This document shows, piece after piece, positions 29,528 to 45,281 of a stretch of 64,000 nt of DNA. The notes under the pieces are model-generated. The model worked only from the letters and a program-made list of their open reading frames with translations. It searched no databases and had not been told where the DNA came from. This stretch comes from Hwanghaeella sp. (GTDB lineage Bacteria > Pseudomonadota > Alphaproteobacteria > UBA8366 > Aestuariispiraceae): positions 2,462,777-2,526,776 of the forward strand of contig NZ_OZ245754.1 in NCBI RefSeq assembly GCF_965227365.1, written 5' to 3'. The position numbers and the translations under genes are program-made. The first letter of the stretch is position 1; every line of letters starts with the position of its first letter.

Positions 29528-30301
29528 ATGCCCCGTTGGGATCTGATGACCAGCACCGAGATCGGCGACGCCATCGCGTCGGGCATTGATCTGGCCATCC
29601 TGCCGGTTGGCGCGACGGAGCAGCACGGCCCTCATCTGGCGACCGGTTGCGACACGGTCTCGGCAGAGACCATCGCCGTTCTGGCGTCAGAGAAAAGCGG
29701 TGCCTTGGTCCTACCCGGCATCCCCTATGGATGCTCGCTCGGCCATACGGACAAATGGCCCGGAACGCTCTCGCTCCACCCCATGACATTGACTCAGGTC
29801 GTCCTGGAGTCGTGCCGCTGGCTGGCAAAAAACCGCATCCGCAAGGTGCTTCTGCTGTCAGGGCACGCGACAAACGACCCGCCGCTGAAAAGCGCAATCC
29901 TTCAACTCCGCTATGAGTTCCCCGATTGCCGTTATGCGACCATGGGGCTGTGGGAAATCTCCCGCCGGGCGCGGGACCTCTATCTGCGCGACGGCGACGA
30001 TATTCACGCCAATCGGGGCGAGACCTCGATCCTGATGCATCTGCGCCCGGAAATGGTGCGCCCGGACCACGCCGAAGATGTCGGCGACGTCACGCCGGGC
30101 AAGGTCTTTTCCTATGCCATGCCGGCTACGACCCCGAACGGTGTTGTCGGCAGACCGACAGAATCCAGCGCCGAAGACGGCGAGATGATGGTTCGGACCA
30201 TCGTCGAAGATTTGGAGAATTGGATCGAAACGGCACTGGCCGAGGGCTGGCCGGATGTCCCGCATGCCTGCGGTCCCGTGGCCGCCGAGCAACAGATTTG
30301 A
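29528..30301 (+). CDS. creatininase-family amidohydrolase
   Basis: ATG 29528 with AGGAG SD. Family motif LPVGATEQHGPHL...LLSGHATN...ANRGETS. Confidence 0.8.
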   Translation: MPRWDLMTSTEIGDAIASGIDLAILPVGATEQHGPHLATGCDTVSAETIAVLASEKSGALVLPGIPYGCSLGHTDKWPGTLSLHPMTLTQVVLESCRWLAKNRIRKVLLLSGHATNDPPLKSAILQLRYEFPDCRYATMGLWEISRRARDLYLRDGDDIHANRGETSILMHLRPEMVRPDHAEDVGDVTPGKVFSYAMPATTPNGVVGRPTESSAEDGEMMVRTIVEDLENWIETALAEGWPDVPHACGPVAAEQQI

Positions 30302-30428
30302 CGACAGGTTCGAACCAAGGCGCCGCAAGCAAAAAAGTGCGCCGGACGGACGGGGAAGTGAGACGGCCCACAAGCCGAGTTTCACGCGGGGCTCAACCCG
30401 CGATCTGTGGAGAAGGAGAGTATTTGCA

Positions 30429-31526
30429 ATGCTGACCAACAAGAAATCGCTGAAGAGGTTCTCGGTGGGGAAGATGGCGTCGGCCGTGGCCATCGCCGCC
30501 GCCCTGATGACCGGCGCCGTCGGTGCCGCCGAAGCGAAAACCTATAAATTCGCCTACAACATCTATGTCGGCTTCATGCCGTATGGCTGGATGGAGAAAA
30601 GCGGCATTCTCGACAAATGGGCCAAGAAATATGGTGTCGATATCGAGGTCATCCAGGTCAACGACTATGTCGGCGGCATCAACCAGTTCACCGCCGGAGA
30701 GATTGACGGCATGGCCGTCGCCTCGATGGACGGGTTGACCATCCCCGCCGCCAGCGGCGTCGACACCTCCATCGTTCTCGCCGGTGACTTCTCGAACGGG
30801 AATGACGGGATCCTTTCCAAGAACATTACCGACATCAAGTCGCTGAAGGGTGAAACCATTCACCTCTTTGAGCTGACCGTGTCGCACTATCTGCTGTCCC
30901 GGGCCCTGGAACTGAACGGCCTGTCCCTGCGCGACGTGAAGACCGTCAACATCACCGACGCGGATATCGCGCCGGCCTATATGGGGTCGGATGAAATCCA
31001 GCATGCCGTCACCTGGAACCCGATGCTGCTGCAAATGGAAACCAAGGTCGCCGGCACCAAGCGCATCTTCGACAGCGCATCCACGCCGGAGGAGATTGTC
31101 GACGTCATGCTGATGCATACGAAGACGGTCAAGGAGAACCCCGCCGTCGCCAAAGCCCTGGTCGGTGCCTGGTATGAAACCATGGCAATCATGAATGGCG
31201 GCGACGCCGCGGCCGAATCCATGATCGCGGACCTCGCCGACGCGTCCGGCGGTTCCGTCGATGAATACAAGGCCCAGCTCGCCAGCACCAAGATGTACTA
31301 CGATCCCGCCGAAGCCCTCGACCTGATGAATTCCAAACGTCATCAGAAGACCTGGGATTTCGTTCGCACCTTCTCCTACGATGTCGGTCTGTTCGGCGAA
31401 GCCGCCGCCTCGGCTGATTTCATCGGCATCGAATTCCCGGACGGCACTGTCCTGGGGGACAAGGGTAACATCCAGCTGCGCATCGACTCCTCCTTCACCG
31501 AAATGGCCGTGAAGGGCGAGCTCTGA
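30429..31526 (+). CDS. ABC transporter periplasmic binding protein (NitT/TauT-like, of the type found in urea-carboxylase regions)
   Basis: ATG 30429. Signal peptide ...GAVGAAEA. NMT1/SsuA-like fold pattern. Confidence 0.78.
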   Translation: MLTNKKSLKRFSVGKMASAVAIAAALMTGAVGAAEAKTYKFAYNIYVGFMPYGWMEKSGILDKWAKKYGVDIEVIQVNDYVGGINQFTAGEIDGMAVASMDGLTIPAASGVDTSIVLAGDFSNGNDGILSKNITDIKSLKGETIHLFELTVSHYLLSRALELNGLSLRDVKTVNITDADIAPAYMGSDEIQHAVTWNPMLLQMETKVAGTKRIFDSASTPEEIVDVMLMHTKTVKENPAVAKALVGAWYETMAIMNGGDAAAESMIADLADASGGSVDEYKAQLASTKMYYDPAEALDLMNSKRHQKTWDFVRTFSYDVGLFGEAAASADFIGIEFPDGTVLGDKGNIQLRIDSSFTEMAVKGEL

Positions 31527-31628
31527 TCGCCGGTCGTCAGGAACGCTGGCGCAGCCAGGGCCTCGGCTGCGTCGGCTTCCGCGATCGCCCCATTCTTTAC
31601 GTCAACGCGCAGGACAAAGGTCACGGAA

Positions 31629-32441
31629 ATGCGTCGCGCCATTAATTACGTCCCGGACCGGCATAGCGGTCTGCTTCTGGCGATCGTGCCGTTCGCTTTT
31701 CTCCTCGGCGTCTATTTCATCGGGTCCGACGCACGGTTGAGCGCCAATCCGGACGACAAGCTGATGCCGGGGCTGCAAGCCTTCGTCGATGCGATCAATT
31801 CCCTGGCCTTCACCGAGAACAGGCGCACGGGCGAATATGTTTTCTGGACGGATACGCTCATCAGCCTGCAGCGTATTTTTCTCGGCCTTTCGATTTCGAC
31901 CGTCATTGCGGTTGTCCTTGGCCTGCCGATCGGTCTGCTGCCGTATCTAAATCGGTTGTTCGGTCCGTTCATGGCGGCCTTCTCGCTGATCCCGCCGCTG
32001 GCCGTCCTTCCGATCCTTTTCATCATTTTCGGATTGGGCGAACTTTCGAAGATCGTCCTGATCATCTTCGGCGTCGCCCCTTTTCTGGTCCGCGACATGG
32101 CCATGGCGACCGTCGCCATCCCGAAAGAACAGATCGTCAAGGCGCAGACTTTGAGCGCATCGAGTTGGCAGATCCTGATCCACGTTGTTTTCCCGCAGAT
32201 CCTGCCGCGCTTGATCGACTCGCTGCGCCTGATGCTGGGCGCAACCTGGCTGTTCCTGATCGCCGCGGAGGCAATCGCTTCGGAAGGCGGTTTGGGATAC
32301 CGGATCTTCCTCGTCCGGCGTTATCTCGCCATGGATGTCATCCTGCCCTATGTCGCCTGGATAACCCTCCTGGCCTTCCTGATGGATTACCTGTTGATGC
32401 TAGGCTCGCGCGCCTTGTGCCGTTGGCACCACATTCGATGA
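31629..32441 (+). CDS. ABC transporter permease (NitT/TauT family)
   Basis: 270 aa with 6 TM helices and an EAA-like loop (AAEAIASEGGLGY). Confidence 0.85.
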   Translation: MRRAINYVPDRHSGLLLAIVPFAFLLGVYFIGSDARLSANPDDKLMPGLQAFVDAINSLAFTENRRTGEYVFWTDTLISLQRIFLGLSISTVIAVVLGLPIGLLPYLNRLFGPFMAAFSLIPPLAVLPILFIIFGLGELSKIVLIIFGVAPFLVRDMAMATVAIPKEQIVKAQTLSASSWQILIHVVFPQILPRLIDSLRLMLGATWLFLIAAEAIASEGGLGYRIFLVRRYLAMDVILPYVAWITLLAFLMDYLLMLGSRALCRWHHIR

Positions 32442-32463
32442 ACCGGCAAAGGAACGACGCGAT

Positions 32464-33342
32464 ATGACCGAGATCACGATCAATAACGTCTTCAAGGAAT
32501 ATAACGGCGTCCCGGTGCTGGAACGGGTTAACGTGACGCTGCCAGATCACGAGTTCTGCCTGATCCTGGGGTCCTCGGGCGCCGGCAAGAGCACGCTTCT
32601 GCGTATGCTGTTGTCCCAGGAAACACCGACGCGCGGCGAGATATTGATCGATGGCGAACCGATCGATGTGGAGCCCCAGGCTGACCGTGGAGTCGTGTTT
32701 CAGCGCTATTCCGTTTTCCCTCACAAGACCGTATTGGCCAATGTCATGGCCGGCCCCAGTTTTCGCCAATCGCGGTTTGCCGGATGCCTGTTCGGATCAA
32801 GAAAGGCGCAGCTTCGCGACCGAGCGATGGAATTGCTGCAACAGGTCGGATTGGCGGATGCGGCGGAGAAATATCCGGCCCAGCTATCCGGCGGCATGCA
32901 ACAGCGTCTTGCCATTGCACAGGCCCTGATCATGGAACCGAAAGTGCTGTTGCTGGACGAACCCTTCGGCGCGCTCGACCAAAGCACCAAGAAGTCGATG
33001 CATAAACTGATCCTGGATCTGTGGCGCGCCAACAAGATGACCATCGTGATGGTAACCCACGATATCCAGGAAGCCTTCACGCTGGGCACCCGCATCCTGA
33101 TGGTCGACAAGACCCGACAGGATCCGCAGGCACCCGAAGCCTATGGATCGACTATCGTCCACGACATCCGCCTGGACCCCACCCGCAAGGCGCCTCTCGA
33201 CCCGGACGAAAGTGAAGAAAAACAGAGCATGGAGGACATCTTCCTGAAATGGGCCGGAAAGATGGAACATGCGGTTATCAGCGATGAGACACCCGCCGGG
33301 TCGGAAAAACCCGATGCGATCAAAACCAGGGAAGTCGCCTAG
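32464..33342 (+). CDS. ABC transporter ATP-binding protein
   Basis: Walker A GSSGAGKST, signature LSGGMQQR, Walker B LLLDEP. Confidence 0.92.
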   Translation: MTEITINNVFKEYNGVPVLERVNVTLPDHEFCLILGSSGAGKSTLLRMLLSQETPTRGEILIDGEPIDVEPQADRGVVFQRYSVFPHKTVLANVMAGPSFRQSRFAGCLFGSRKAQLRDRAMELLQQVGLADAAEKYPAQLSGGMQQRLAIAQALIMEPKVLLLDEPFGALDQSTKKSMHKLILDLWRANKMTIVMVTHDIQEAFTLGTRILMVDKTRQDPQAPEAYGSTIVHDIRLDPTRKAPLDPDESEEKQSMEDIFLKWAGKMEHAVISDETPAGSEKPDAIKTREVA

Positions 33343-33345
33343 TCG

Positions 33346-34092
33346 ATGACAACTCAGTCCACTGAAAGCTTGCCGCTTTCCGGCAAGGTCTTCGCCGTGA
33401 CCGGCGGCGCCAGAGGCATCGGCGCAGCGGTCTGTTCCGTCCTGAACGCGCGTGGCGCAATCGCTGTCGCGTTCGATATCGATCCCGCCGCCGCGGCAGG
33501 TCGTGAAGCCATAGCCTGCGACGTCACCGACGAAACCTCGGTCAAAGCCGCCTTCGCCGCGCTTCACGAAACCCATGGCCGATTGGACGGGGTCGTCAGC
33601 AATGCGGGCATCATGGTTGAGAAACCTCTCGCGGAGACGACGATGGAGGATTTCGACCGCGTCATCGCGATCAATCTGCGCGGTGTGTTCCTGACGGCCA
33701 AATCCGCCCTGCCCTATTTCCGCAAAGGCATGCCAGATGCGGAGAAACCGCGCATCGTCAACGTCGCCTCCGAACTCGGCCATCTAGGTCGGCCTGAATA
33801 TGCCGCCTATTGCGCCAGCAAAGGCGGGGTCATCACCCTCACACGCGCCCTAGCCCGGGAACTGGCGCCCGACATCCTGGTCAACACGCTGGCCCCCGGC
33901 CCGACGGATACGGACATGCTGCGTGCGGAAAAGAACTACGACAGTTGGGTAAAGGACGGCGAAGGTATTCCGCTGGGACGGGTCGCAACGGCGGAGGAAG
34001 TCGCCTTGGCGGCCGCCTTCCTGTGCGGTCCCGATTCCCGTTTCATGACCGGCACAATCATCGATGTGAATGGCGGCGCGGCGATGTATTGA
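33346..34092 (+). CDS. SDR family oxidoreductase
   Basis: TGGARGIG, NAG, and the YCASK catalytic motif. 3-bp gap after the ABC ATPase gene. Confidence 0.88.
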   Translation: MTTQSTESLPLSGKVFAVTGGARGIGAAVCSVLNARGAIAVAFDIDPAAAAGREAIACDVTDETSVKAAFAALHETHGRLDGVVSNAGIMVEKPLAETTMEDFDRVIAINLRGVFLTAKSALPYFRKGMPDAEKPRIVNVASELGHLGRPEYAAYCASKGGVITLTRALARELAPDILVNTLAPGPTDTDMLRAEKNYDSWVKDGEGIPLGRVATAEEVALAAAFLCGPDSRFMTGTIIDVNGGAAMY

Positions 34093-34104
34093 TCGCCGCG
34101 TATC

Positions 34105-35160
34105 CTAACTCGCCTGCTTTTCCAGGTGGAAACGGCCGAACTGATTGGTCTCCAGCGATCCGTCAGGCAGATCGACATCCTTCAGATATTTGAAGGTCTG
34201 AATGGTCTGCGCCACCAGGTGGTCGCCGGCGGAAATCGGACCGTATCTGGTTTCCGTGCCCGCCTCGATCAATTCCGGTATCGGCGAGACCACGGTCTCG
34301 TAGTCTGTCGCGAAGAACAGCGGAAAGGAATAGCGTTCCTCGTTCACCCGATCGACACGGTGCGAATTGGCCACATAGAGACCGTTCGACCAGTTCTCCA
34401 GCATATCGCCGATATTGATGACGAAGGTGCCTTCCACCGGCGGCGCGTCGACCCATTCGCCGTCATTGCGCAGAACCTGCAGCCCCGGCGCGGTCGGCAG
34501 CAGGATGGTGAAAAGTTCGTAATCCGTGTGGGCGCCTATCCCCATCCGTTTCAGCCGCGCCTGTTCCTCCGCGCTCACCACCTTGTCGGTTTCCCAATAA
34601 TGGATCAGGCGCAACTGGCTGGTCGGCTTTGAAACATGCTTGACGAAAATGTCTTCGGGTAGTCCCAGTCCAAGGGCGAAACCGCGCAGCAAATCCTTGC
34701 CCAGATCCAAAGCCGCCGCGTAATAGCGGTCGACGGCCGCCTTGTGATCGGCCACTTCGTCCGGCCAGACATTCGGGCCGAGCATCCGATTTCCGGCGAG
34801 ATAATCGGGGTCGTCCGCCGGCAGGTCCAGCGCGGTGTCGAAGGCTTCCTTCAAATCGCCGCCGCCTTCGCCGTAGAATTCCTCACCCTGGGGAACATAA
34901 CCGCGATGGTTGGTCGACTTGCCGATATAATAGTCCATCTTGGTTTCGAGCGGCAGAGCGAACAGCGCCTTGGCTGCCTGCTTCAGCCCTTCCACCGTCT
35001 CTTCCGGGATTCCGTGGCCGGCGATATAGACAAAGCCGACATCGCGGGCGGCGCGGTCAAGATCCTTCACCGCCGCCATGCGCTTTTCCGGGTCAGACGA
35101 CCGAAGGCCGGAAACATCCACCAAGGGGATCTCGGAAAAGTTCGTCCGCGCTTTGGCCAT
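34105..35160 (-). CDS. 2-oxoglutarate/Fe(II)-dependent oxygenase, isopenicillin-N-synthase/EFE family (paralogue A)
   Basis: 351 aa. Facial triad GIGAHTDYE ... SHRV, and RYSFPLF (2OG-binding Arg-x-Ser). Confidence 0.85.
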   Translation of the reverse strand: MAKARTNFSEIPLVDVSGLRSSDPEKRMAAVKDLDRAARDVGFVYIAGHGIPEETVEGLKQAAKALFALPLETKMDYYIGKSTNHRGYVPQGEEFYGEGGGDLKEAFDTALDLPADDPDYLAGNRMLGPNVWPDEVADHKAAVDRYYAAALDLGKDLLRGFALGLGLPEDIFVKHVSKPTSQLRLIHYWETDKVVSAEEQARLKRMGIGAHTDYELFTILLPTAPGLQVLRNDGEWVDAPPVEGTFVINIGDMLENWSNGLYVANSHRVDRVNEERYSFPLFFATDYETVVSPIPELIEAGTETRYGPISAGDHLVAQTIQTFKYLKDVDLPDGSLETNQFGRFHLEKQAS

Positions 35161-35313
35161 AACCGCTTCCTATCGCAATACCGATATTGATACCTGGACA
35201 AATATTGTGCAGCGCAATAGATCGCTTGTCCAATGTTCACTGCTCCCACATTATAGGCCGAGCGGAAAAATTTTGCAGCGCACCACTGCCATTCCAATAG
35301 AAGGCAAACCCAC

Positions 35314-36081
35314 GTGATCTCACTTACCGGCAAAACCGCGTTGATCACCGGTGGCAGCCGCGGCATCGGTTACGGTATCGCGGAACGTTTTCTGGAGGCG
35401 GGCGCGCGCCTACATATCCTTGCCGAAACCGAGGCTGCCTTGGAAGCCGCTGACGCATTGGGCACGCAAGTGACCGGGCATGTCTGCGACATCACGGACG
35501 GGGACGCGGTCGCGACGCTGGTCGCCTCCCTCGGACCGATCGACATCCTGGTCAATAATGCCGGCCTGGAACGGATCACCGCGCTGACCGATATGTTCGA
35601 CCCGGCACCGGTCGTCGAAGAGACCTTCCGGCGGATCATGGATATCAACGTGACCGGCACGTTCCTGTTGACCCGCACTGTCCTGCCGCTGATCCCCGAT
35701 GGCGGAACGATCATCAACACCGCCTCAATCTGGGGGAAGTCGGGCCCTGCCTGGTATTCCGCCTATTCCGCCTCGAAACATGCCGTCATCGGATTGACCC
35801 GCGTCTGGGCCCGTGAACTCGGGCAGCGGCGGATCAGGGTCAATGCCGTTTGCCCTGGCTGGGTGGAAACGGAACCGGCGATGCTGTCACTGCAACGGCT
35901 TTCGGACGCAACTAGCCGGGACCCGGACGACCTGTTGAACGAGATCGTCTCGGCGCAGGACCTGCCGGGTTTGATGAAGCCCGCCGATGTCAGCGGATTA
36001 TACGTTTTCCTGGCCAGCGACCTCGCCGCCAGCATCACGGGACAGGCAATCAATGCGGATCGCGGCGAAGTTCACGGATAG
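35314..36081 (+). CDS. SDR family oxidoreductase
   Basis: GTG start. TGGSRGIG, NNAG, YSASK. Confidence 0.86.
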   Translation: MISLTGKTALITGGSRGIGYGIAERFLEAGARLHILAETEAALEAADALGTQVTGHVCDITDGDAVATLVASLGPIDILVNNAGLERITALTDMFDPAPVVEETFRRIMDINVTGTFLLTRTVLPLIPDGGTIINTASIWGKSGPAWYSAYSASKHAVIGLTRVWARELGQRRIRVNAVCPGWVETEPAMLSLQRLSDATSRDPDDLLNEIVSAQDLPGLMKPADVSGLYVFLASDLAASITGQAINADRGEVHG

Positions 36082-36100
36082 GCGCCCGGCGCCCCGCCGG

Positions 36101-36763
36101 TCAGTCCGGCTTCAACGCGTGGGCGACGTCTGCGCAGGTCGCGATCCAGCCGAACAGATGGCCTTCGCTTTGAATTATCGCCATGGTCGCGTCATGCAAG
36201 GCACGGTCGAACGTCGCGCAACCGTCGGCCAGTGTCAGGCAGCGATATCCTCTGTCCACGGCTTCCCGCAACGTCGACTGGACGCAGCATTGGGTCGTGA
36301 CGCCGCCGATGATCAAATGGGTGATCCCGCGCGCCCGCAGGCGCAAATCCAGATCGGTCGCGTAAAAGGAACCGAAGCCCGGCTTGTCGATGATCCATTC
36401 ACCGGGTTCCGGTTGCAATTCGTCGATGAAGTCATGTCCGTATTCCCCGCGGACGAGATAACGCCCCAACGCCCCCGGCGCACCGATTTCAGCGCCCGCG
36501 TCCCGGCTGCGTTGCCGCTTCGCCTCGTTGAGGTCCGACAGGTCGGGCACATGCCCTTCCCGTGTATGGGCGACGGTCAATCCGCTGGCGCGCGCCGCCT
36601 GCAGCAGGTCACGCAGGGCCGGCACAATCGCCTGAACCGGACCGCTCTCGCCGTTCGCCGCTTCGTTCTGGATGAAGTCCCTTTGCATATCGATCAGAAG
36701 AAGCGCCGTCTTATCGGGCGGGAAGGAATATGTCCGATCAGCAAAGGCGGGAACGGTGATCAT
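36101..36763 (-). CDS. isochorismatase-family cysteine hydrolase
   Basis: ATG 36763 with GGAG SD 8 nt upstream (TTG 36790 is an alternative). Motifs ALLLIDMQRDF, a Lys region, and GVTTQCCVQST (catalytic Cys). Confidence 0.8.
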   Translation of the reverse strand: MITVPAFADRTYSFPPDKTALLLIDMQRDFIQNEAANGESGPVQAIVPALRDLLQAARASGLTVAHTREGHVPDLSDLNEAKRQRSRDAGAEIGAPGALGRYLVRGEYGHDFIDELQPEPGEWIIDKPGFGSFYATDLDLRLRARGITHLIIGGVTTQCCVQSTLREAVDRGYRCLTLADGCATFDRALHDATMAIIQSEGHLFGWIATCADVAHALKPD

Positions 36764-37472
36764 GCCTGATACTCCAGCGTCGAAAATCAATTGGGAAACC
36801 GGACCGGCACCGATCCGCTACAGAGGATTGTGGCGCCGCCGCCTGCTGGTGGAAGAGGACGGCAGCCGCGATGCGGATACCATAGTCTGGTGGCTGCAGA
36901 GCCGACAACTCTTTGCCGACATCCGGCTGTCCCCCGATCGCAGCGCCGTTGCCGGCGCGACCTGTTTCGGCGATCTAGATCACGCCGGACTGCAGACGCT
37001 TGTTCTACAGGAAGGGTTTGCCGGTTTTCTGGAATGGACCGACACGGCCTGTGCCTGGCGTCGAAAGGTGGACTATCGCCCCCTACCCGGTCCGCCCGAT
37101 GAAGGCTGGATGGAGGCAAAAGGAAACGATCTGATGATCGAGCGCGGCATCCATCGCGGCTACCTGGAAGAATGGGTGCAAACCGCCGCCACCGATGCCG
37201 TCATGAACGACTGGATCTGGCATGATGGCTGGAACGGCCCGACACTTTTGCGGATCGGCAGCACCTTCATGTTCGCCGAGGATCGGCGCGGCAGCCCACC
37301 GCACGCAGAGAATTTCGAAACGAATGTCCTGGCCGCATTAGGGGACGAGGCTGCCCTCGCCGCGCTTCTCGATTGTGAAATCTCCTTCGGGAAGATCGGC
37401 GCGGACGGAACCTGGTCGATCACGATGTCCACCATTCCCTGGCGCGAGGGCGAAACGGTCACCGCCCTCTGA
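36762..37472 (+). CDS. hypothetical Trp-rich protein
   Basis: 236 aa with gene-like GC3 codon usage. No recognised family. Confidence 0.5.
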   Translation: MPDTPASKINWETGPAPIRYRGLWRRRLLVEEDGSRDADTIVWWLQSRQLFADIRLSPDRSAVAGATCFGDLDHAGLQTLVLQEGFAGFLEWTDTACAWRRKVDYRPLPGPPDEGWMEAKGNDLMIERGIHRGYLEEWVQTAATDAVMNDWIWHDGWNGPTLLRIGSTFMFAEDRRGSPPHAENFETNVLAALGDEAALAALLDCEISFGKIGADGTWSITMSTIPWREGETVTAL

Positions 37473-37537
37473 GCAATATTTTTTGCACTGCAACACTTCC
37501 CTTTTTCTGTCCCGCAGGTATACTTTCTATTCAAAGA

Positions 37538-37645
37538 TTGCGGCTAGGGTTCCGATCGTCATCACGGCGGTGTCTGGACCGAGAGCTGACGCCTGGTCCA
37601 TCAACAGACCGGGTCCACGGCGGGATAAAAGCCCGGGAGGTCATG
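37538..37645 (+). promoter_or_regulatory. guanidine-I riboswitch (ykkC-yxkD class) aptamer
   Basis: Conserved blocks are in the right order and spacing: CTAGGGTTCCG (37544-54), TGGACCGAGAG (37575-85), CACGGCGGGATAAAAGCCCGGGAGG (37616-40). Lies in the 300-nt leader of the DUF1989/carboxylase operon. Confidence 0.85.
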
Positions 37646-37773
37646 GTGGTGCTGCGGTGCGCCCAACCTCCGAGACGTTTGTCTCCCGGATATCAGGACC
37701 GCTCCGTTCAGCATCAGAGCTTCAATTGCCGTCCGCCCCTGGAAAGGGCAGGCCGGCGGTGACGAGGGAGGCG

Positions 37774-38613
37774 ATGATGACGGCCGAAACAGCGAGCATT
37801 GACGAGTTGAAAGCCCGTTATGCCGCATTGAAAGAAACAGGGCAGAAGGAAGGCGAGTTCGAGGCCAGATTGGCCGGCGCCCCTGCAGCGCCCGTGACGA
37901 TCCCGGAAAACAGGATATCGAAACAGGAAACGGTCCCCGGCGGCTGGTATTGGACCACGACCGTGAAGCGCGGGCAGACGCTGCGCATCGTGAATTCGCA
38001 CGCCACGCCCGGTATCGCCCTGCAGATCTGGAACCAACACGACCCGTCCGAACGGTTCAATTCCGCCGATACGATCAAGGTTCAGTGGACGGCGCGGATC
38101 GGCAAGGGCCGTGTGCTGTTGTCCGATATGGGCCGGGTCTTGATGGCGATTACCGAAGACACCTGTGGTTATCATGACTGCGTCGCCGGACACTCGACGG
38201 CAATCACCAACGAAAAGAGTTATGGTTCGGGCACCCTAAGGAACAGCCCTGTCCCGGTGCGCAACAGCCGCGATAACTTCCTGATCGCCGCCGCGAAACT
38301 GGGGCTCGGCAAGCGGGACGTCCATCAATCCTTTTGCGCCTTCGCCCCCGTCGAGACGGGCGAAGAAGGCGCCCTGACCTGGAAGGACGGCGCCCTGAAA
38401 GCCGGCGATTTCATCGATCTGCGCGCGGAAATGGATTGCATCCTCTGCCTGTCGAATTGTCCCCATCCACTGGCACCGGGCGGGAGTTACGATCCTCAAC
38501 CCGTTGCCGTGACCATCTGGGATGCGGGCCCGGTCGCCGAGAATGATCTGTGCCGGACCGGAACCGCGGAAGCGGTCCGCGCCTATGAGAATACGGACCC
38601 GCTTTTCGACTGA
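37774..38613 (+). CDS. urea-carboxylase-associated DUF1989 protein 1 (carboxyguanidine deiminase subunit-like)
   Basis: ATG 37774 after GAGGGAG SD. Motif RGQTLRIVN...ERFNSADT...DTCGYHDCVAGHS. The upstream part of the ORF-track frame covers the riboswitch and is not coding. Confidence 0.8.
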   Translation: MMTAETASIDELKARYAALKETGQKEGEFEARLAGAPAAPVTIPENRISKQETVPGGWYWTTTVKRGQTLRIVNSHATPGIALQIWNQHDPSERFNSADTIKVQWTARIGKGRVLLSDMGRVLMAITEDTCGYHDCVAGHSTAITNEKSYGSGTLRNSPVPVRNSRDNFLIAAAKLGLGKRDVHQSFCAFAPVETGEEGALTWKDGALKAGDFIDLRAEMDCILCLSNCPHPLAPGGSYDPQPVAVTIWDAGPVAENDLCRTGTAEAVRAYENTDPLFD

Positions 38614-38681: not shown

Positions 38682-39323
38682 ATGACCACATTGAGCAACC
38701 TGCAACCGGACACCGCCAAACAACGCCTTAAAGTGCCGGCAAACGCCCCCTTCTCCGCCATCGTGAAGAAGGGGCAGACCATTCGCATCGTCGACAGTTT
38801 CGGCCAACAGGCCGTCGACACCCTATTCTACAACGCCGCGGATACGGACGAGCGCTATTCCGCGCATGACACGGTCGCCGCCCAAGGCGCCGCCTATATC
38901 ACCACCGGATCCAAGGTGCTTTCCAACGAAGGCAACCTGATGTTGACGGTAACCGCGGATACGGTCGGCTATCACGACACATCCGCCGGCGCGTGTTCGG
39001 TTGAATCGAACACGGTTCGCTTCGGCCACCACACGCGCTTCATGCATGCCTGTCGCGAGAACTTCGTTCTGGAAGCCGCGAAATACGGCATGGACAAGCG
39101 AGACATCGTTCCCAACATCAACTTTTTCATGAACGTCCCGATCGAGCCGGACGGCAATCTCGCCATCGTCGACGGCTTGTCGGAACCCGGCAACTATGTG
39201 GAGTTGAAGGCCGAGATGGATGTGATCTGCCTCATCTCGAACTGTCCGCAGGTGAACAATCCCTGCAACGGGTTCAATCCAACGCCGATCGAAATCCTGA
39301 TCTGGGATCGAGAACCGGCATGA
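38682..39323 (+). CDS. urea-carboxylase-associated DUF1989 protein 2 (carboxyguanidine deiminase subunit-like)
   Basis: 213 aa. Motif KGQTIRIVDSFGQQAVD...ERYSAHDT...DTVGYHDTSAGACS. 4-bp overlap with the carboxylase gene. Confidence 0.8.
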   Translation: MTTLSNLQPDTAKQRLKVPANAPFSAIVKKGQTIRIVDSFGQQAVDTLFYNAADTDERYSAHDTVAAQGAAYITTGSKVLSNEGNLMLTVTADTVGYHDTSAGACSVESNTVRFGHHTRFMHACRENFVLEAAKYGMDKRDIVPNINFFMNVPIEPDGNLAIVDGLSEPGNYVELKAEMDVICLISNCPQVNNPCNGFNPTPIEILIWDREPA

Positions 39324-42300
39324 TCAACAAAGTCCTCATCGCCAACCGGGGAGAGATCGCCGTCCGGATCATCCGGACCTTGCGGGAAATGGGTCTCCCC
39401 TCGGTGGCTGTCTATTCCGACGCGGATCGCCACGCCGCGCATGTGCGTCTTGCCGATGAAGCGGTTCGGATCGGTCCCGCGCCCGTCACGGACAGTTATC
39501 TAAACCGTGATGCGATCCTAGCCGCCTGCAAACAGACCGGGGCGGACGCGGTTCACCCGGGTTATGGGTTCCTGTCGGAGAACCCGGATTTCGCCGAAAG
39601 CCTGGAAGCGGAAGGGATCCGGTTCATCGGGCCGACGCCGGACCAGATGCGCATTTTCGGTCTGAAGCACAGCGCCCGCGAAGCGGCCGAGAACAGCGGT
39701 GTGCCGCTGCTGCCCGGCAGCGGATTGGTCGATACGCTGGAAGAAGCGAAGGCGGAGGCAGAACGGATCGGCTATCCCGTCATGCTGAAAAGCACCGCGG
39801 GCGGCGGCGGTATCGGCCTGCAATTATGCGAGAGGGCAGAGGATCTGCCGGAACTGTTCGAAACCGTCAGACGGCTCGCGAGGTCCAACTTTTCCGATCC
39901 GGGCATCTTTATCGAAAAATACATCGCCCATGCCCGTCATGTGGAAGTGCAGATCTTCGGCGACGGCAAGGGCCACGTCGTGTCTCTCGGCGAACGTGAC
40001 TGCTCCCTGCAGCGCCGGAACCAGAAGGTCGTCGAGGAAACGCCCGCCCCGAACCTGCCGCAAGCCACCAGGACGGCCCTGATCGATGCCGCTCTATCCC
40101 TCGGGCGGTCCGTCGATTACCGGTCAGCCGGAACGGTGGAATTCATCTATGACGGCAAGGCGGACGAATTCTACTTTCTGGAGGTGAACACCCGCCTGCA
40201 GGTCGAACATCCGGTCACCGAATTGGTCACCGGCGAGGACCTGGTATCCTGGATGGTGAATCTGGCGGCGGACAAGATGGACCTCGCCGCCTATCCCGAC
40301 GTACTGCCGGTGCGCGGCGCGGCCATGGAGGTGCGCGTCTATGCGGAAGACCCGGGCAAGGGATTTCAACCTTCCGCCGGACCGCTCACGCATGTCTCTT
40401 TTCCCGAAGGCGTGCGCGTAGACAGCTGGATAGAGACCGGGTCCGACGTTTCCATGTATTACGACCCGATGCTGGCCAAGGTCATCGTTCATGCGGACAC
40501 CCGGGACGCGGCGGCGGATGCCCTTTCCGACGCGCTGCGGAAATCGGCCATCTACGGCATTGAAACAAACCTGGCCTATCTCAGGGCGATTTCGGAAAGC
40601 GCCATGTTCCGTGCCGGCCATGTCTTCACGAAGGCGCTCGACCGGTTCGACTTCACGCCCAATACCGTCGACGTTCTTGCCCCCGGAACCCATTCGGCAC
40701 TTCAGGATTGGCCGGGACGGGTCGGTTTTTGGGATGTCGGTGTCCCTCCGTCGGGCCCGATGGACGCACTGAATTTCCGGCTGGCCAACGCCTTGCTCGG
40801 CAACGCGCCCGACGCCGCCGGACTGGAAATGACAATGACCGGGCCGACATTGCGGTTCAACCGCGATGCCGTCATCGTGCTGACCGGTGCCGACTTTCAT
40901 GCGAAGCTCGACGGCGACCCGGTCGATTGTTACCGACCAATCTCTATCCATCGCGGTCAAACGCTCAGTCTTGGCAAGGCCGGGGACGGCGGCGTTCGCG
41001 CCTATCTGGCGGTCGCGGGCGGGTTCGATGCGCCGCTCTATCTGGGCAGCCGTGCGACCTTCGATCTGGGCGGCTTCGGCGGACACGCCACCGGGAACTT
41101 GAAAAGCGGCGATGTCCTGCGTCTGACGGATAAGGCGGATGCCCCGGTTCTTCGCGGCGCCCTGCCCGGATCTCATTGGCCGCACTTGCCCGACGATTGG
41201 GAAATCGGCGTGCTTTACGGTCCACATGGCGCGCCGGACTTTTTCACGGATTCGGATATCGAAATCCTGTTCTCGACGCCCTACGAAGTCCATTTCAACA
41301 GCGCCCGCACAGGTGTCCGCCTGATCGGCCCGAAACCCGCATGGGCAAGGCCCGATGGCGGTGAAGCCGGTCTGCATCCATCGAACATCCACGACAATGC
41401 CTATGCCGTCGGGGCCATAGACTTCACCGGGGACATGCCGATCATTCTCGGCCCCGACGGTCCCAGCCTGGGTGGGTTCACCTGTCCCGCCGTCGTCGCC
41501 AAGGCCGAGCTTTGGAAGATGGGACAGTTGCGGCCGGGTGACCGTGTGCGTTTCAAGCGGCTGGCCCTGGCGGAAGCCGAAGCGCTCGAGGAACAGCAGG
41601 AAGCGTTCCTGAACGCCTTGTCCTTCGGCCGGGATGTCGAGCAGGCAGCCCCGCCCTCGCCCAGCATTCTGAAAGCATCCGGGCTGCGGGAGGACGCGGT
41701 CGTCGCCCGCGACGAAACGAATGGTATCGAGATTTGCTACCGCCGGACGGGTGAAGACTTCCTGCTCGTCGAATTCGGCGAACAGGAACTGGACCTGGAT
41801 CTCCGCGTAAAGGCCCATTTGTTGATGCAACGCATCCAGGCCGAAGAAATGGACACCGTCATCGACCTGACGCCGGGTATACGGTCGCTGCAAGTCCATT
41901 TCGACAACCGCCGGGTCAAGCCGAGCGATATGCTCGCCAAACTGCGCGAGTTCCAGAGCGACCTGCCGGCGCTGGACGATGTGATACTGCCGAGCCGGGT
42001 GGTCCATATGCCTTTGTCCTGGGATGACGAAAGCACGCGGATCGCGACGAAACGCTACCAGGACCTGGTCAGGCCCGATGCGCCCTGGTGCCCCTGGAAC
42101 ATCGAATTCATTCGTCGCATCAACGGGCTGGACAGTGTTGACGACGTCAAGAAGGTCGTTTTCGACGCAGATTACATGGTTCTGGGTTTGGGGGATGTCT
42201 ATCTCGGCGCGCCCGTCGCTACACCTGTCGATCCCCGCCATCGCTTGGTCACCACAAAATACAATCCGGCCCGCACCTGGACGCCACAAAACGCGGTCGG

Positions 42301-42946
42301 GATCGGCGGCGCCTATATGTGCGTTTATGGCATGGAAGGGCCTGGTGGGTATCAATTCGTCGGGCGTACCGTTCAGGTCTGGAACACCCATCGCCAAACC
42401 GGGAATTTCAAAGAAGACAAACCCTGGCTTCTGCGTTTCTTCGACCGCATCAAGTTTTACCCCGTCACCAACGAAGAACTCACCGAAATGCGTGACGGCT
42501 TCCTGCATGGAGAAGCGGAACTGAAGATCGAGGACGGCACATTCGACCTGGCCGAGTATCACCGGTTCCGGGCACAAAATGCGACGTCGATCGAGACCTT
42601 CCGAAGCAGGCGTCAAGCCGCCTTCGACGAAGAACGCGCGCGCTGGGAAGCGCAAGGGATCGCGGCCATTGTCGATGAAACCGATCTGGCGCCGGAACCG
42701 GTCGGCGTTGATCTGGCCGACGGCGCCATGCTGATCGAAGCACCGATGAACGGGTCGGTTTGGAAAGTCTCTGTCGAAATCGGTGATCGCATTTCCGCCG
42801 GCGACAAGGTCGCCGTCCTGGAAGCCATGAAGACAGAAATCGCTGTGGATGCAACGCAGGACGGGCACATCACCGATATCCTGTGCAAGCCGGGACAGAT
42901 CGTCCGGCCGGGTGACCCGCTGCTGGTCATTCAAACGGAGGCTTGA
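39320..42946 (+). CDS. uca: biotin-dependent urea/guanidine carboxylase
   Basis: 1208 aa. N-terminal biotin carboxylase (KVLIANRGEIAVRIIRT, MLKSTAGGGGIGL), central KipA/KipI-like carboxyltransferase domains, and a C-terminal biotinyl motif VLEAMKTEI. Confidence 0.92.
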   Translation: MINKVLIANRGEIAVRIIRTLREMGLPSVAVYSDADRHAAHVRLADEAVRIGPAPVTDSYLNRDAILAACKQTGADAVHPGYGFLSENPDFAESLEAEGIRFIGPTPDQMRIFGLKHSAREAAENSGVPLLPGSGLVDTLEEAKAEAERIGYPVMLKSTAGGGGIGLQLCERAEDLPELFETVRRLARSNFSDPGIFIEKYIAHARHVEVQIFGDGKGHVVSLGERDCSLQRRNQKVVEETPAPNLPQATRTALIDAALSLGRSVDYRSAGTVEFIYDGKADEFYFLEVNTRLQVEHPVTELVTGEDLVSWMVNLAADKMDLAAYPDVLPVRGAAMEVRVYAEDPGKGFQPSAGPLTHVSFPEGVRVDSWIETGSDVSMYYDPMLAKVIVHADTRDAAADALSDALRKSAIYGIETNLAYLRAISESAMFRAGHVFTKALDRFDFTPNTVDVLAPGTHSALQDWPGRVGFWDVGVPPSGPMDALNFRLANALLGNAPDAAGLEMTMTGPTLRFNRDAVIVLTGADFHAKLDGDPVDCYRPISIHRGQTLSLGKAGDGGVRAYLAVAGGFDAPLYLGSRATFDLGGFGGHATGNLKSGDVLRLTDKADAPVLRGALPGSHWPHLPDDWEIGVLYGPHGAPDFFTDSDIEILFSTPYEVHFNSARTGVRLIGPKPAWARPDGGEAGLHPSNIHDNAYAVGAIDFTGDMPIILGPDGPSLGGFTCPAVVAKAELWKMGQLRPGDRVRFKRLALAEAEALEEQQEAFLNALSFGRDVEQAAPPSPSILKASGLREDAVVARDETNGIEICYRRTGEDFLLVEFGEQELDLDLRVKAHLLMQRIQAEEMDTVIDLTPGIRSLQVHFDNRRVKPSDMLAKLREFQSDLPALDDVILPSRVVHMPLSWDDESTRIATKRYQDLVRPDAPWCPWNIEFIRRINGLDSVDDVKKVVFDADYMVLGLGDVYLGAPVATPVDPRHRLVTTKYNPARTWTPQNAVGIGGAYMCVYGMEGPGGYQFVGRTVQVWNTHRQTGNFKEDKPWLLRFFDRIKFYPVTNEELTEMRDGFLHGEAELKIEDGTFDLAEYHRFRAQNATSIETFRSRRQAAFDEERARWEAQGIAAIVDETDLAPEPVGVDLADGAMLIEAPMNGSVWKVSVEIGDRISAGDKVAVLEAMKTEIAVDATQDGHITDILCKPGQIVRPGDPLLVIQTEA

Positions 42947-42949
42947 GGC

Positions 42950-43207
42950 ATGATGCCTGACGCACCGAAAACGACAATGTTCGAACTGAGCCTGGACAGT
43001 TTGGCCGTGGCGATTGTCGTCGAGGCCTTTGGCAGTTTTGCCGAGCTGATCCCACGGCAGCTGGGTATCGGCACAGAGGCCCTGGCAAACGGACTGCAGG
43101 TCAAAGGTTTCATCTGCGAACCGACTGGTATCGCAGCCGCAACCGAGATCACGCAATATGGCCGATGGCGATCCTATTGCGCGGAAACTGCCGCCTGGAG
43201 TGCATAA
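42950..43207 (+). CDS. 85-aa ORF matching only the C-terminal domain of allophanate hydrolase (remnant or stand-alone domain)
   Basis: FGSFAELIPRQLGIGTEALANGLQVKGFICEP...EITQYGRWRSY resembles the AtzF/DUR1,2 AH C-terminus. GGAGG SD present. Occupies the slot where full-length AH normally follows the carboxylase. No amidase-signature domain is present. Confidence 0.5.
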   Translation: MMPDAPKTTMFELSLDSLAVAIVVEAFGSFAELIPRQLGIGTEALANGLQVKGFICEPTGIAAATEITQYGRWRSYCAETAAWSA

Positions 43208-43273: not shown

Positions 43274-44350
43274 ATGGAACTGCCGAAGTATGATGCTAAC
43301 GCCGCCATCCGCCCGACCGATGTCCGCAAGGGCACCGGCTATGCGGCAGAGCGCATCGATTTCGATAGCATCCCCATCGTCGATATCGGTGCGGCGATCA
43401 ACGGAGATCCGGACGGCAAGCAAAGGGCCGCGGCGGCGTTGAGAGAGGCCGCCGCGAATGTCGGTTTCTTCTACATCAAGAACCACGGCGTCCCCGACGA
43501 CGTCATCAGCAAGGCGCAAGCGGCCGCGGATCGTTTCTACGGACTGCCAATAGCGGTGAAATCGCAATACGACGTTGCCAAGGCGAAACGCCACCGGGGC
43601 TATGTTCCGGTCGGCGGTCTCAGCGCCGATCCGACCACTTCCGACCTGCAGGAAGGATACGAGGTCGGCCTGGAAGTGCCTGAGGACGATCCCGACTATC
43701 TATCCGGCAATCCACTGTTCGCGCCGAACAACTGGCCGGCGGAACTACCGGAATTCCGGGCCGACATCTATGCCTATTTCGAAGAGATGATGAAACTCGG
43801 CCGCACGATGTACCGGCTGTTCGCGCTGGCGGTCGGCATGCCGGAAGACTATTTCGACGACAAGGTGACCAAGCCCTGCGCGCAGCTGCGTGTGATGTAC
43901 TACCCGGAGACGGACCCGAAAGACAGCGCGGTCGGCATCGGCGCCCATACGGACTACGAAAGCTTCACTGTGCTCTACCAGTCGGAATCCGGACTGCAGG
44001 TACAGAACCGCGCCGGCGCCTGGATCGAAGCCCCGCCGATCCCCGGTACCTTCATCGTCAACATCGCCGACATGATGATGCGATGGACCAACGAACTTTT
44101 CGTGTCCACACCGCACCGCGTGATCAATACGTCCGGCAGGAAACGCTTCTCCCTGGCGCTGTTCTTTGCGGCTGATTACGACACGGTGGTGGAGTGCCTG
44201 CCTAGTTGCACGAATGCTGACAATCCGCCGAAATATCCGCCGACGCATTTCGGATATTGGATCGAAAACATGCATTCCTATTCCTACGCTTATCGCTGGG
44301 ACGAACGCGGCAAACTGCCGAACCCGGAACTCACGGACACGAGAGGCTGA
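43274..44350 (+). CDS. 2-oxoglutarate/Fe(II)-dependent oxygenase, isopenicillin-N-synthase/EFE family (paralogue B)
   Basis: 358 aa. GIGAHTDYE ... PHRV and RFSLALF. By eye roughly 40% identical to the 34105-35160 product. Confidence 0.85.
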   Translation: MELPKYDANAAIRPTDVRKGTGYAAERIDFDSIPIVDIGAAINGDPDGKQRAAAALREAAANVGFFYIKNHGVPDDVISKAQAAADRFYGLPIAVKSQYDVAKAKRHRGYVPVGGLSADPTTSDLQEGYEVGLEVPEDDPDYLSGNPLFAPNNWPAELPEFRADIYAYFEEMMKLGRTMYRLFALAVGMPEDYFDDKVTKPCAQLRVMYYPETDPKDSAVGIGAHTDYESFTVLYQSESGLQVQNRAGAWIEAPPIPGTFIVNIADMMMRWTNELFVSTPHRVINTSGRKRFSLALFFAADYDTVVECLPSCTNADNPPKYPPTHFGYWIENMHSYSYAYRWDERGKLPNPELTDTRG

Positions 44351-44378: not shown

Positions 44379-45281
44379 ATGATCCAGAATCCCATTCCCT
44401 GGCCGAACGGCGCGAAATGCGCCTGCGCGATCACCTTCGATATCGATGCCGACAGCTTGATCCATGTGGCACGGCCCGGCGACTCCCATAACCGCCTATA
44501 CCCGATCAGCATGGGGAAATACGGTCCCGACGTCGCCATTCCACGAATTCTGGAGACCTACAAGCGGCTTGGCATCAAGCAGAGCTTCTTCGTCCCCGCC
44601 TGGTGCATCGACCAATACGCGCCGGTGATGGAGAAGATCCTGGAAGGCGGCCACGAGATCGGCCATCACGGGCTTATTCATGAAGACCCGATCGAGACGA
44701 TGGGCCCGCGTCAGCGCGAAGCCTTCGAAAAGGCGCTTTCAATCCATCGGCGCGTGTGCGGCGGCAAGCCCAAGGGTTATCGCGCCCCGGTCTATAACAT
44801 TACGCCGCAAGTCGTGGATCTGTTGATCGAACATGGCTTCGCCTACGACTCTTCCCTGATGGGGGATGATATCCCCTATCTACTGGAGAAGGACGGCAAC
44901 AGCATCGCGGAAATCCCGGTGCATTGGGGCTGCGACGACTGGCCCCCCTTCGCGCATTACGAGGAAATCGGTTACATGATGCATGTACAGCCGCCATCGC
45001 TCGGCTATCAGGGTTTCTGGGAGGAATTCGAGGCCCAGTATGAAGCCGGCGGTTTCTTCATGATGATAGTACATCCCTTCCTGACCGGCCGCCTCGCGCG
45101 GTGGCGGGTTGTCGAAAAGTGGTTGGAAAACACCTTGGAGACGAAGGATGTCTGGTTCGCCAGACTGGACGAAATCGTCGACTACGTCCGCAGCCTGGAA
45201 AAGGCCGGCACCTATACCCCGCGCAAGGATCTGCTTCCCTACTATCCCGAACAGGTAAACCGGGCCGAAGCAGCGGAATAA
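44379..45281 (+). CDS. polysaccharide deacetylase family protein (PuuE-allantoinase-like size and architecture)
   Basis: 300 aa. NodB-like motifs (TFDIDADS, GHEIGHHG, YRAP). Confidence 0.78.
   Translation: MIQNPIPWPNGAKCACAITFDIDADSLIHVARPGDSHNRLYPISMGKYGPDVAIPRILETYKRLGIKQSFFVPAWCIDQYAPVMEKILEGGHEIGHHGLIHEDPIETMGPRQREAFEKALSIHRRVCGGKPKGYRAPVYNITPQVVDLLIEHGFAYDSSLMGDDIPYLLEKDGNSIAEIPVHWGCDDWPPFAHYEEIGYMMHVQPPSLGYQGFWEEFEAQYEAGGFFMMIVHPFLTGRLARWRVVEKWLENTLETKDVWFARLDEIVDYVRSLEKAGTYTPRKDLLPYYPEQVNRAEAAE

Follow-up and report, generated by a model that had tools for sequence, protein, structure and literature searches.

Guanidine-I riboswitches and the Hwanghaeella locus

Guanidine-I riboswitches usually act on transcription, whereas guanidine-II and guanidine-III riboswitches act on translation (PMC12186494). 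In Pseudomonas syringae, enterobacteria and Vreelandella boliviensis, guanidine-I elements precede operons that encode two carboxyguanidine deiminase subunits and a guanidine carboxylase (PMC12508155; PMC12186494), and the V. boliviensis element, Gd-I, is presumed to act via a terminator (PMC12508155). We analyzed a 64,000-nt stretch of the Hwanghaeella sp. genome (contig NZ_OZ245754.1, positions 2,462,777 to 2,526,776 of the forward strand; hereafter the window), in which a guanidine-I aptamer lies in the 5′ leader of the same kind of operon, on the same strand and 135 nt before its UAAP1-UAAP2-carboxylase genes. The aptamer, its pocket blocks, its helices and the kind of genes behind it are those of the class representatives from Dickeya dadantii, Sulfobacillus acidophilus (PDB 5T83) and Bacillus subtilis (ykkC). 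The stretch between aptamer and start codon differs from the typical guanidine-I platform. We propose, as an evenly balanced reading, a functional guanidine-I riboswitch that would work as a translational ON switch through the exchange of two helices, H1 and H-alt, with no usual intrinsic terminator.

A guanidine-I aptamer with a consensus pocket

The whole window was scanned on both strands with 4227 Rfam families. The sole match above gathering is the Guanidine-I family, RF00442, whose covariance model aligns over its full length (model positions 1-107 of 107) with 37533-37641 on the plus strand, scoring 86.4 bits against a gathering score of 63 (E = 4.7e-14). A sequence-only reading of the locus, made earlier without database searches, had called a guanidine-I (ykkC) riboswitch at 37538-37645 and named this covariance model as the check that could overturn the call; the score lies above gathering and the call holds, with both ends shifted by about 4-5 nt. 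The three ykkC blocks that it had listed are present on the plus strand and in order. The aptamer and its parts are as follows.

37533-37641, plus strand: guanidine-I (ykkC subtype 1) aptamer with helices P1, P1a, P1b, P2 and P3 (RF00442)
37544-37554, plus strand: conserved block 1, CTAGGGTTCCG (sequence)
37576-37585, plus strand: conserved block 2, GGACCGAGAG (sequence)
37617-37639, plus strand: conserved block 3, ACGGCGGGATAAAAGCCCGGGAG (sequence)
37616-37639, plus strand: 3′ pocket block CACGGCGGGAUAAAAGCCCGGGAG, identical to the consensus and corresponding to D. dadantii C64-G87

None of the residues G83-G87 is left free in the D. dadantii crystal structure: G84 and G87 take part in long-range pairs, G85 contributes to the guanidinium pocket, and A86 is paired with G67 (PMC5340920). 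With the numbering mapped via sequence identity, the aptamer tail GGGAG (37635-37639) corresponds to D. dadantii G83-G87, and the pocket pattern ACGR ... GGGA ... CCCGGGAG (D. dadantii G67, G68, G84, G85, A86 and G87) is identical to the consensus in the window. Subtype 1 is told from subtypes 2a and 2b by the adenosine at A46 of 5T83, which is a pyrimidine in the aptamers for guanosine tetraphosphate (ppGpp) and phosphoribosyl pyrophosphate (PRPP) (PMC6031431). The window block CCGAGAG (37579-37585), in which A46 is placed by our own mapping, is the subtype 1 consensus with both adenosines kept, and on that mapping the aptamer is of subtype 1.

For comparison we assembled 14 leaders, that is, the window and 13 related loci, two of them from a genome scan (L001 and L002) and the others from exact-protein look-ups of homologs at 84-59% identity (L111, L112, L116, L117, L118, L122, L123, L125, L126, L127 and L128). 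The closest genomes are Hwanghaeella grinnelliae (L001, 83% amino acid identity) and a metagenome-assembled genome (L002, 81%). Eight genomes including the window form a Hwanghaeella-type clade, and six are more distant relatives. All 13 related leaders have the same riboswitch-spacer-operon arrangement, with the aptamer followed by a spacer of 121-156 nt. A metagenome scan for nearer relatives gave a best match of 55% identity and none with a window-type spacer. In the alignment of the 14 aptamers, 11 of the 29 predicted pairs, in P1, P1b and P2, show compensatory changes on both sides; the covariation term is -2.75 kcal/mol, and the pocket blocks are invariant. Judged by sequence, the aptamer shows every character of the guanidine-I class, and 37533-37641 is almost certainly a guanidine-I riboswitch, predicted to bind guanidinium.

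The spacer contains no terminator-type platform

The aptamer ends 132 nt before an ATG at 37774 and 135 nt before a second one at 37777, close to the 130 nt given by the sequence-only reading. The cyanobacterial guanidine-I leaders in our data set, and most of those from soil alphaproteobacteria, show a stem complementary to CCCGGGAG and then a run of T4-T6 at +19 to +49. The window spacer has no platform of this typical kind. Its longest T run is 3 and lies inside a hairpin loop, and a census of T runs gave maxima of 2-3 in the eight Hwanghaeella-type spacers, again in the hairpin loop, and of 2-4 in the six distant relatives. A consensus terminator scanner called no terminator in the window or its relatives; we relied on the census because the scanner also missed a clear positive control, the L065 terminator, which has a 16-nt loop. 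The leader very probably has no intrinsic terminator, in line with the earlier remark that an obvious U-tract terminator is lacking. The imperfect hairpin TCCGAGAC-GTTT-GTCTCccGGA pointed out in the same remark is real, although it spans 37669-37690 rather than beginning at 37668. The expression platform had been described as unclear, and the comparative model set out below is our addition.

U-tracts are also missing from other alphaproteobacterial guanidine-I leaders, namely L003 (3158-3252), L060/L061 (2922-3004), L031 and L076, and terminator-less guanidine-I platforms therefore seem to have arisen more than once. As in the window, the GGGAG tail of these leaders starts a hairpin and the Shine-Dalgarno (SD) sequence lies in or next to a downstream hairpin, but their spacers, at 81-93 nt, are shorter and of unrelated sequence. 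No switching was seen when these leaders were folded at equilibrium. The L003 tail, GGGAGGA, forms a helix with AUCCUCC, and the SD of L003 is masked by a hairpin of its own, GUCCUCCAAA/UUUGGAGG. Our search of the literature library available to us found no description of a translational guanidine-I platform. In Proteobacteria, many riboswitch classes normally use translational platforms. Given this, and the other terminator-less guanidine-I leaders in the sample, the window platform is uncharacterized yet unsurprising.

The aptamer tail is shared with a conserved hairpin

The structures of the spacer and the ribosome-binding site (RBS) to which the following analysis refers are listed here.

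37635-37671, plus strand: hairpin H1, with an outer stem GGAGGU (37636-37641)/ACCUCC (37666-37671) and an inner stem GGUGC (37648-37652)/GCGCC (37659-37663)
37647-37657, plus strand: 5′ strand of H-alt, UGGUGCUGCGG, shared with the inner stem of H1 (RNAalifold)
37704-37716, plus strand: 3′ strand of H-alt, CCG-UU-CAGCAUCA (RNAalifold)
37669-37690, plus strand: hairpin H2, the imperfect hairpin mentioned above, with the core GAGAC (37672-37676)/GUCUC (37681-37685)
37719-37723, plus strand: candidate anti-SD GCUUC, which pairs with GAGGC (37768-37772) as a basal extension of H3 (RNAalifold)
37726-37759, plus strand: hairpin H3, directly 5′ of the SD and with no U residues after it (compensatory changes)
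37766-37771, plus strand: SD sequence GGGAGG (sequence)

H1 begins within the aptamer. Each of the 14 sequences folds into such a hairpin, at -17.8 to -24.6 kcal/mol, and the 3′ strand varies between lineages (ACCUCC, UGACUUCC, GACUUCUC and GACCUUC) while always pairing with the invariant tail. Because H1 pairs the pocket bases equivalent to G84-G87, we infer that H1 and the ligand-bound pocket are mutually exclusive. This resembles the guanidine-I class in general, where the aptamer 3′ end is common to a competing hairpin (PMC5340920), and H1 takes the role of the left arm of the terminator, without the U-tract. It differs from the typical arrangement in that the window H1 pairs only GGAG and 2 further nt rather than all eight residues of CCCGGGAG, and in that about 100 nt of conserved structure (H-alt, H2 and H3) follow before the RBS. 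Pairing is kept at 93% in the inner stem of H1, where G-C/G-U, U-G/U-A and G-C/A-U variants occur, and its covariation is not significant against shuffles because GGUGC, invariant in 14 of 14 sequences, never varies. In the outer stem, tallied by eye, only G-C to G-U changes occur because its 5′ strand is the invariant aptamer tail. The MAFFT alignment left-justified the 3′ strand of H1, and the statistics therefore cover the inner stem only.

H-alt is the RNAalifold consensus fold for the clade. All 11 of its pairs are kept in the eight genomes (100% paired), and both variable positions change to G-U or U-G. Outside the clade, each distant lineage carries, 20-40 nt past H1, a segment of its own sequence that is Watson-Crick complementary to the H1 5′ strand; examples are UCAUGAAGG with CCUUCAUGA (L123) and GAUGGUG with CACCAUC (L118 and L126). 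Over seven lineages together, the longest complements amount to 47 nt, compared with 35.8 +/- 2.5 in dinucleotide shuffles, none of which reached the observed value (0/2000; Fisher p 0.004). When the five tail bases are blocked, the minimum-free-energy fold moves from H1 to H-alt in 10 of the 14 sequences, at a cost of 0-10 kcal/mol. These comparisons make the H1/H-alt exchange somewhat more probable than its absence. In most relatives the partners of the RBS in minimum-free-energy folds map to the 3′ strand of H-alt, and this strand is predicted to be also part of the strand that folds back on the RBS when H1 is formed.

The two remaining hairpins of the spacer are also conserved. H2 is 100% paired, with one double change from A-U to U-G in L128, and the distant relatives have an equivalent CUUC-N4-5-GAAG hairpin at its place; an extension of H2, UCC/GGA, is predicted to be able to recapture the anti-SD-like CCUCC that the opening of H1 sets free. 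H2 and H3 together are 95.5% paired, compared with 33-48% in slid controls, and three of their pairs, two of them in H3 (G-C / G-U / A-U), change on both sides, a count reached by 16 of 500 shuffles. RNAalifold also paired GUCAU (37640-37644) with AUGAC (37777-37781); we rejected this helix as coincidental, as it is not conserved outside the clade. Folding z-scores for the minimum free energy of the whole leader were -0.9 and -0.4, and are uninformative in RNA this rich in G+C.

We compared the spacer with silent sites in the six genomes whose UAAP1 genes align gap-free. Pairwise identity is 0.87 in the spacer and 0.65 at fourfold-degenerate sites of UAAP1, from which the spacer is, on these sequences, under selection. 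By segment, identity is 0.965 in H1, 0.92 in H2, 0.86 in the middle, 0.76 in H3 and 0.90 around the SD; H3 stays paired despite having the lowest identity.

Predicted coupling to the ribosome-binding site

We measured the output as the free energy needed to open the region from -15 to +5 around the start, with the tail free or blocked. Relative to the blocked state, a free tail adds 2.07 kcal/mol to the cost of opening (mean; range -0.2 to +9.5), and the difference is positive in 12-13 of the 14 sequences. In a control that shuffled the middle of the spacer and kept H1 and the RBS, the mean was -0.24 +/- 0.58 and none of 60 shuffles reached the observed value; over seven independent lineages the difference is +2.02, against -0.08 +/- 0.66 when shuffled. 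This difference has the sign expected of an ON switch. We consider ON logic highly probable.

The sequence of events could then be as follows. Without ligand, the pocket-forming tail GGAG (37636-37639) and the adjoining GU would be trapped in H1 (37635-37671), and the pyrimidine-rich strand at about 37700-37725 would be free to fold back on the SD and start codon, around H3. With guanidinium bound, the tail would be held in the aptamer and H1 would lose its outer stem, so that the 5′ strand UGGUGCUGCGG could pair with 37704-37716 to form H-alt. H2 would extend and recapture the released CCUCC, and the RBS would become easier to open. Untranslated mRNA would probably also be exposed to Rho or RNases. 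Guanidinium would in this way turn on the two carboxyguanidine deiminase subunits, the guanidine carboxylase and the downstream genes. Guanidine-II and guanidine-III riboswitches, the translational ON switches for this ligand, have unrelated aptamers with the SD in or next to the aptamer, whereas in the window the signal would be relayed over about 130 nt by helix exchange.

Control of the RBS as the main output is the weakest step of this proposal, and we put it at slightly below even. Several results weigh against it, or against the exchange on which it depends. For the window itself no RBS coupling is predicted (0.0 kcal/mol; 0.4 when a span limit is set), although its nearest relatives show differences of +2 to +4.6. 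The mean unpaired probability of the SD, with the 3′ region free versus blocked, is inconsistent between sequences; RNAduplex energies, both for H-alt and for the RBS-closing helix, fall mostly within the shuffled range, and contiguous Watson-Crick helices between spacer and RBS are not enriched. The candidate anti-SD pairing GCUUC/GAGGC is kept in seven of the eight genomes, and the sole variant, GCUAG in L002, breaks the pair and offers no covariation. H1 and H-alt are likewise so invariant that they offer almost none. The folding evidence as a whole is equilibrium thermodynamics on a G+C-rich RNA, and real switching is co-transcriptional.

Alternative explanations

The main rival to RBS control, or an effect that accompanies it, is Rho-dependent attenuation. 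Here the aptamer and the H1/H-alt exchange would operate as proposed, with Rho-dependent termination or RNase entry occurring in the leader and translation affected secondarily; the C-rich ligand-free strand at about 37660-37740 would be the loading site, hidden by H-alt in the presence of guanidine. The lack of an intrinsic terminator in the spacer fits this well, as do the negative GC skew across 37650-37740 (-0.11 to -0.36) and the pyrimidine-rich nature of the very segment that would be exposed without ligand and sequestered in H-alt. The weak direct evidence for a discrete RBS-closing helix and the nil coupling of the window itself also point this way. The exposed stretch is, however, only about 30-45 nt long with a mild C excess, and across the clade the RBS-opening cost responds to blocking of the tail beyond shuffled controls. 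We regard Rho-dependent control as the primary mechanism as unlikely, though a serious contender.

The conservation of the spacer raises the possibility that it does more than connect aptamer and RBS. It seems improbable that the spacer is a self-standing conserved module through which a riboswitch of a classically transcriptional kind has become a relay acting on translation (or coupled to Rho), with the GGGAGG tail as an SD mimic, and that the invariant unpaired stretches of the spacer also bind a protein, small RNA or ligand by which a second signal, such as nitrogen status, would gate guanidine catabolism. Improbable, too, is an independent conserved RNA module that binds a protein, a small RNA or a second ligand and integrates guanidine with, for example, nitrogen status. 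Primary sequence is kept where pairing does not need it, as in GGACCGC and AGCUUCAAUUGCCG, and the excess of spacer identity over silent sites and the invariance of GGUGC in all 14 sequences would suit such a module. Yet an Rfam search of the spacer up to E 10 gave nothing below E = 0.9 and no plausible family, and beyond H1 the spacer sequence is unconserved outside the Hwanghaeella-type clade. Strands that must fit two alternative partners are, moreover, expected to be invariant, which explains most of the spacer conservation.

The opposite logic was also considered. H1 contains a perfect anti-SD, ACCUCC (37666-37671), exactly complementary to the SD and set free when the tail is captured, so that guanidine might release it to pair with GGAGG of the SD and stop translation. 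The tails of L003 and, arguably, L060 mimic an SD and could compete for the true sequestering strand. We judge an OFF switch very improbable: every guanidine riboswitch characterized so far switches expression on, and the genes under its control use up guanidine (PMC12186494); the H2 extension UCC/GGA is expected from the folds to take back the freed CCUCC locally; and the computed coupling to RBS opening has the ON sign.

It is harder still to credit that the system is a decaying relic in this strain, a reading that arises because the operon's allophanate hydrolase is deleted, so that the pathway and its regulation may no longer be selected. The in-frame internal deletion in the hydrolase (see below) and the absence of predicted RBS coupling in the window, where the closest relatives have it, would agree with decay. 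The aptamer is nevertheless consensus-perfect in every pocket block, the spacer differs from those of relatives at few positions, the three pathway genes that precede the remnant remain intact and exceed their curated cutoffs, and a hydrolase could be encoded elsewhere in the 5.2-Mb genome.

The least credible alternative is a leader peptide, coupled to the main gene, that would begin at ATG 37643 or GTG 37646 and use the tail GGGAGG as its RBS; it was rejected because start, frame and stop are unconserved. In its favor, the reading frames of the window (stop TGA, 37760-37762), L112 and L116 all stop 14 nt short of the main AUG, and compensating +1 and -1 indels separate the window from its relatives. 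Against it, four of eight genomes have ATA in place of the ATG; the distances from stop to AUG are 14, 35, 53, none, 14, 14, 45 and 33 nt; the peptide shifts frame from one genome to another and has 6 to 49 codons in distant relatives; conservation is at the nucleotide rather than the codon level; and the GGAGG-ATG spacing is only 2 nt.

The proposed H1/H-alt exchange makes the clade a compact and testable case of a riboswitch class known for terminators that would have been rewired in a G+C-rich alphaproteobacterium. The tail, trap hairpin, swap helix and clamped RBS are defined to the nucleotide, and 14 natural variants are available for mutational design.

Putative promoter and likely start codon

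Upstream of the aptamer, two further elements are conserved.

37479-37506, plus strand: upstream box TTTTTTGCACTGCAACACTTCCCTTTTT, near-invariant in 8 of 8 Hwanghaeella-type genomes
37519-37524, plus strand: -10-like hexamer TATACT, present as TATACT or TATAGT in 8 of 8 Hwanghaeella-type leaders

The intergenic gap is 304 nt (37473-37776), in line with the leader of 300 nt described earlier, but the conserved TATACT indicates that the transcribed part is probably only about 245 nt. The upstream box contains a near-palindrome, TTGCACTGCAA (37483-37493), and a weak -35-like TTCCCT (37497-37502), 16 nt before the TATACT, and relatives have TTTACA-type -35 boxes at the same distance from the -10-like hexamer. 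A strict consensus promoter scan made no call at 37519-37524. The intergenic DNA flanking the box is unalignable among the eight Hwanghaeella-type genomes, and the box itself is absent from the more distant relatives. From its position and conservation, the box may be a promoter and a possible regulator site acting on top of the riboswitch. Transcription probably starts at about 37531-37533, at the first base of the aptamer match.

The SD hexamer GGGAGG is the same as the aptamer tail plus one base (37635-37640), and its GGAGG is invariant in the eight Hwanghaeella-type leaders. The ATG at 37774 is CTG in six of the seven other Hwanghaeella-type genomes; as the ATG at 37777 alone is conserved, it is the likely start of UAAP1. 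The UAAP1 frame is open upstream through the spacer, aptamer and promoter, giving a mechanical 412-aa open reading frame (ORF; 37375-38613, plus strand), and N-terminally extended UAAP1 proteins are annotated in two relatives, P0005 (291 aa) and P0006 (289 aa).

A guanidine carboxylase operon with a deleted allophanate hydrolase

The genes behind the leader are the following.

37777-38613, plus strand: UAAP1 (DUF1989), carboxyguanidine deiminase subunit, 278 aa (PF09347; TIGR03425, 274.8 bits against a cutoff of 205.95)
38682-39323, plus strand: UAAP2 (DUF1989), second carboxyguanidine deiminase subunit, 213 aa (TIGR03424, 333.3 against 284.7)
39320-42946, plus strand: biotin-dependent guanidine carboxylase, 1208 aa (TIGR02712, urea_carbox, 1845.6 against 1303.85)
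42950-43207, plus strand: allophanate hydrolase remnant, 85 aa (last part of Pfam AH_C only)
43274-44350, plus strand: 2-oxoglutarate (2OG)-Fe(II) oxygenase (Pfam DIOX_N and 2OG-FeII_Oxy)
44379-45281, plus strand: polysaccharide-deacetylase / PuuE-like protein (Pfam Polysacc_deac_1)

The DUF1989 pair and the carboxylase, named in the sequence-only reading as the guanidine-I regulon, all score above the curated cutoffs, and the UAAP1 protein is 100% identical to a Hwanghaeella sp. protein. Published work identifies the DUF1989 pair as a heteromeric carboxyguanidine deiminase and the carboxylase as the guanidine carboxylase in a three-step pathway (PMC11410670; PMC12186494). Guanidine carboxylases are marked by Asp at the position of Kluyveromyces lactis 1584 and by Asp at 1330, where urea carboxylases have Asn (PMC11410670). 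We aligned the window protein with the K. lactis urea carboxylase using phmmer, the K. lactis number being the 3VA7 chain index + 593, checked against 5I8I. D701 lies opposite K. lactis N1330 and D959 opposite D1584, so that both signature positions are Asp. The earlier suggestion that the 1208-aa enzyme acts on guanidine rather than urea is thus supported at the level of sequence signature.

From its alignment, the 85-aa ORF is what an in-frame internal deletion has left of allophanate hydrolase: 21 aa at its start match the beginning of the H. grinnelliae (L001) hydrolase, the final ~60 match the end of that enzyme, and the amidase domain has been lost. A full hydrolase gene of ~600 aa is kept at the same position in L001, L002 and L122. 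The window holds no other allophanate hydrolase match, and the enzyme that completes the pathway is not among the genes of the window. The strain is thereby a natural test of the pathway without its last enzyme encoded in cis.

The oxygenase and the PuuE-like gene, which follow on the plus strand after gaps of 66 and 28 nt, are probable further members of the operon. The V. boliviensis operon likewise has an associated 2OG-Fe(II) oxygenase (PMC12508155). The window pair recalls MgdH/MgdL, the methylguanidine hydroxylase and lyase inserted in the V. boliviensis operon (PMC12508155). The window operon differs in having its ATP-binding cassette (ABC) transporter 4-7 kb upstream, outside the riboswitch-controlled unit, in having no internal guanidine-II riboswitch, and in the deleted hydrolase.

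The riboswitch class, its regulon and the assignment to guanidine have all been textbook knowledge since 2017-2020, and the current understanding of guanidine sensing is unchanged by our findings. They are useful chiefly for annotation: what is labeled "urea carboxylase" and "urea amidolyase associated proteins" in this marine Rhodospirillales genome is better read as a guanidine-induced guanidine carboxylase pathway.

Neighboring genes and other guanidine-I loci

Upstream of the leader lies an ABC transporter set consisting of an NMT1-type binding protein, a permease and an ABC ATPase (30255-33342). Between it and the leader are two short-chain dehydrogenases, a second 2OG oxygenase (34105-35160, minus strand), an isochorismatase-like hydrolase (36101-36790, minus strand) and then a conserved protein without a Pfam family that ends at 37472. 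This block (30255-37472) is syntenic in relatives L112 and L122 and has no riboswitch of its own. In many soil and metagenome relatives, the guanidine-I riboswitch lies ~2.9 kb upstream of UAAP1, ahead of transporter genes. The 150-kb contig of L002 (CAYGKA010000001.1) is labeled "uncultured Flavobacteriaceae"; it carries a Hwanghaeella-type operon with a near-identical spacer, and the label is probably wrong. The cyanobacterial locus L006 has two guanidine-I aptamers arranged divergently, back to back (5791-5897, plus strand; 5476-5360, minus strand), each with a terminator-type platform.

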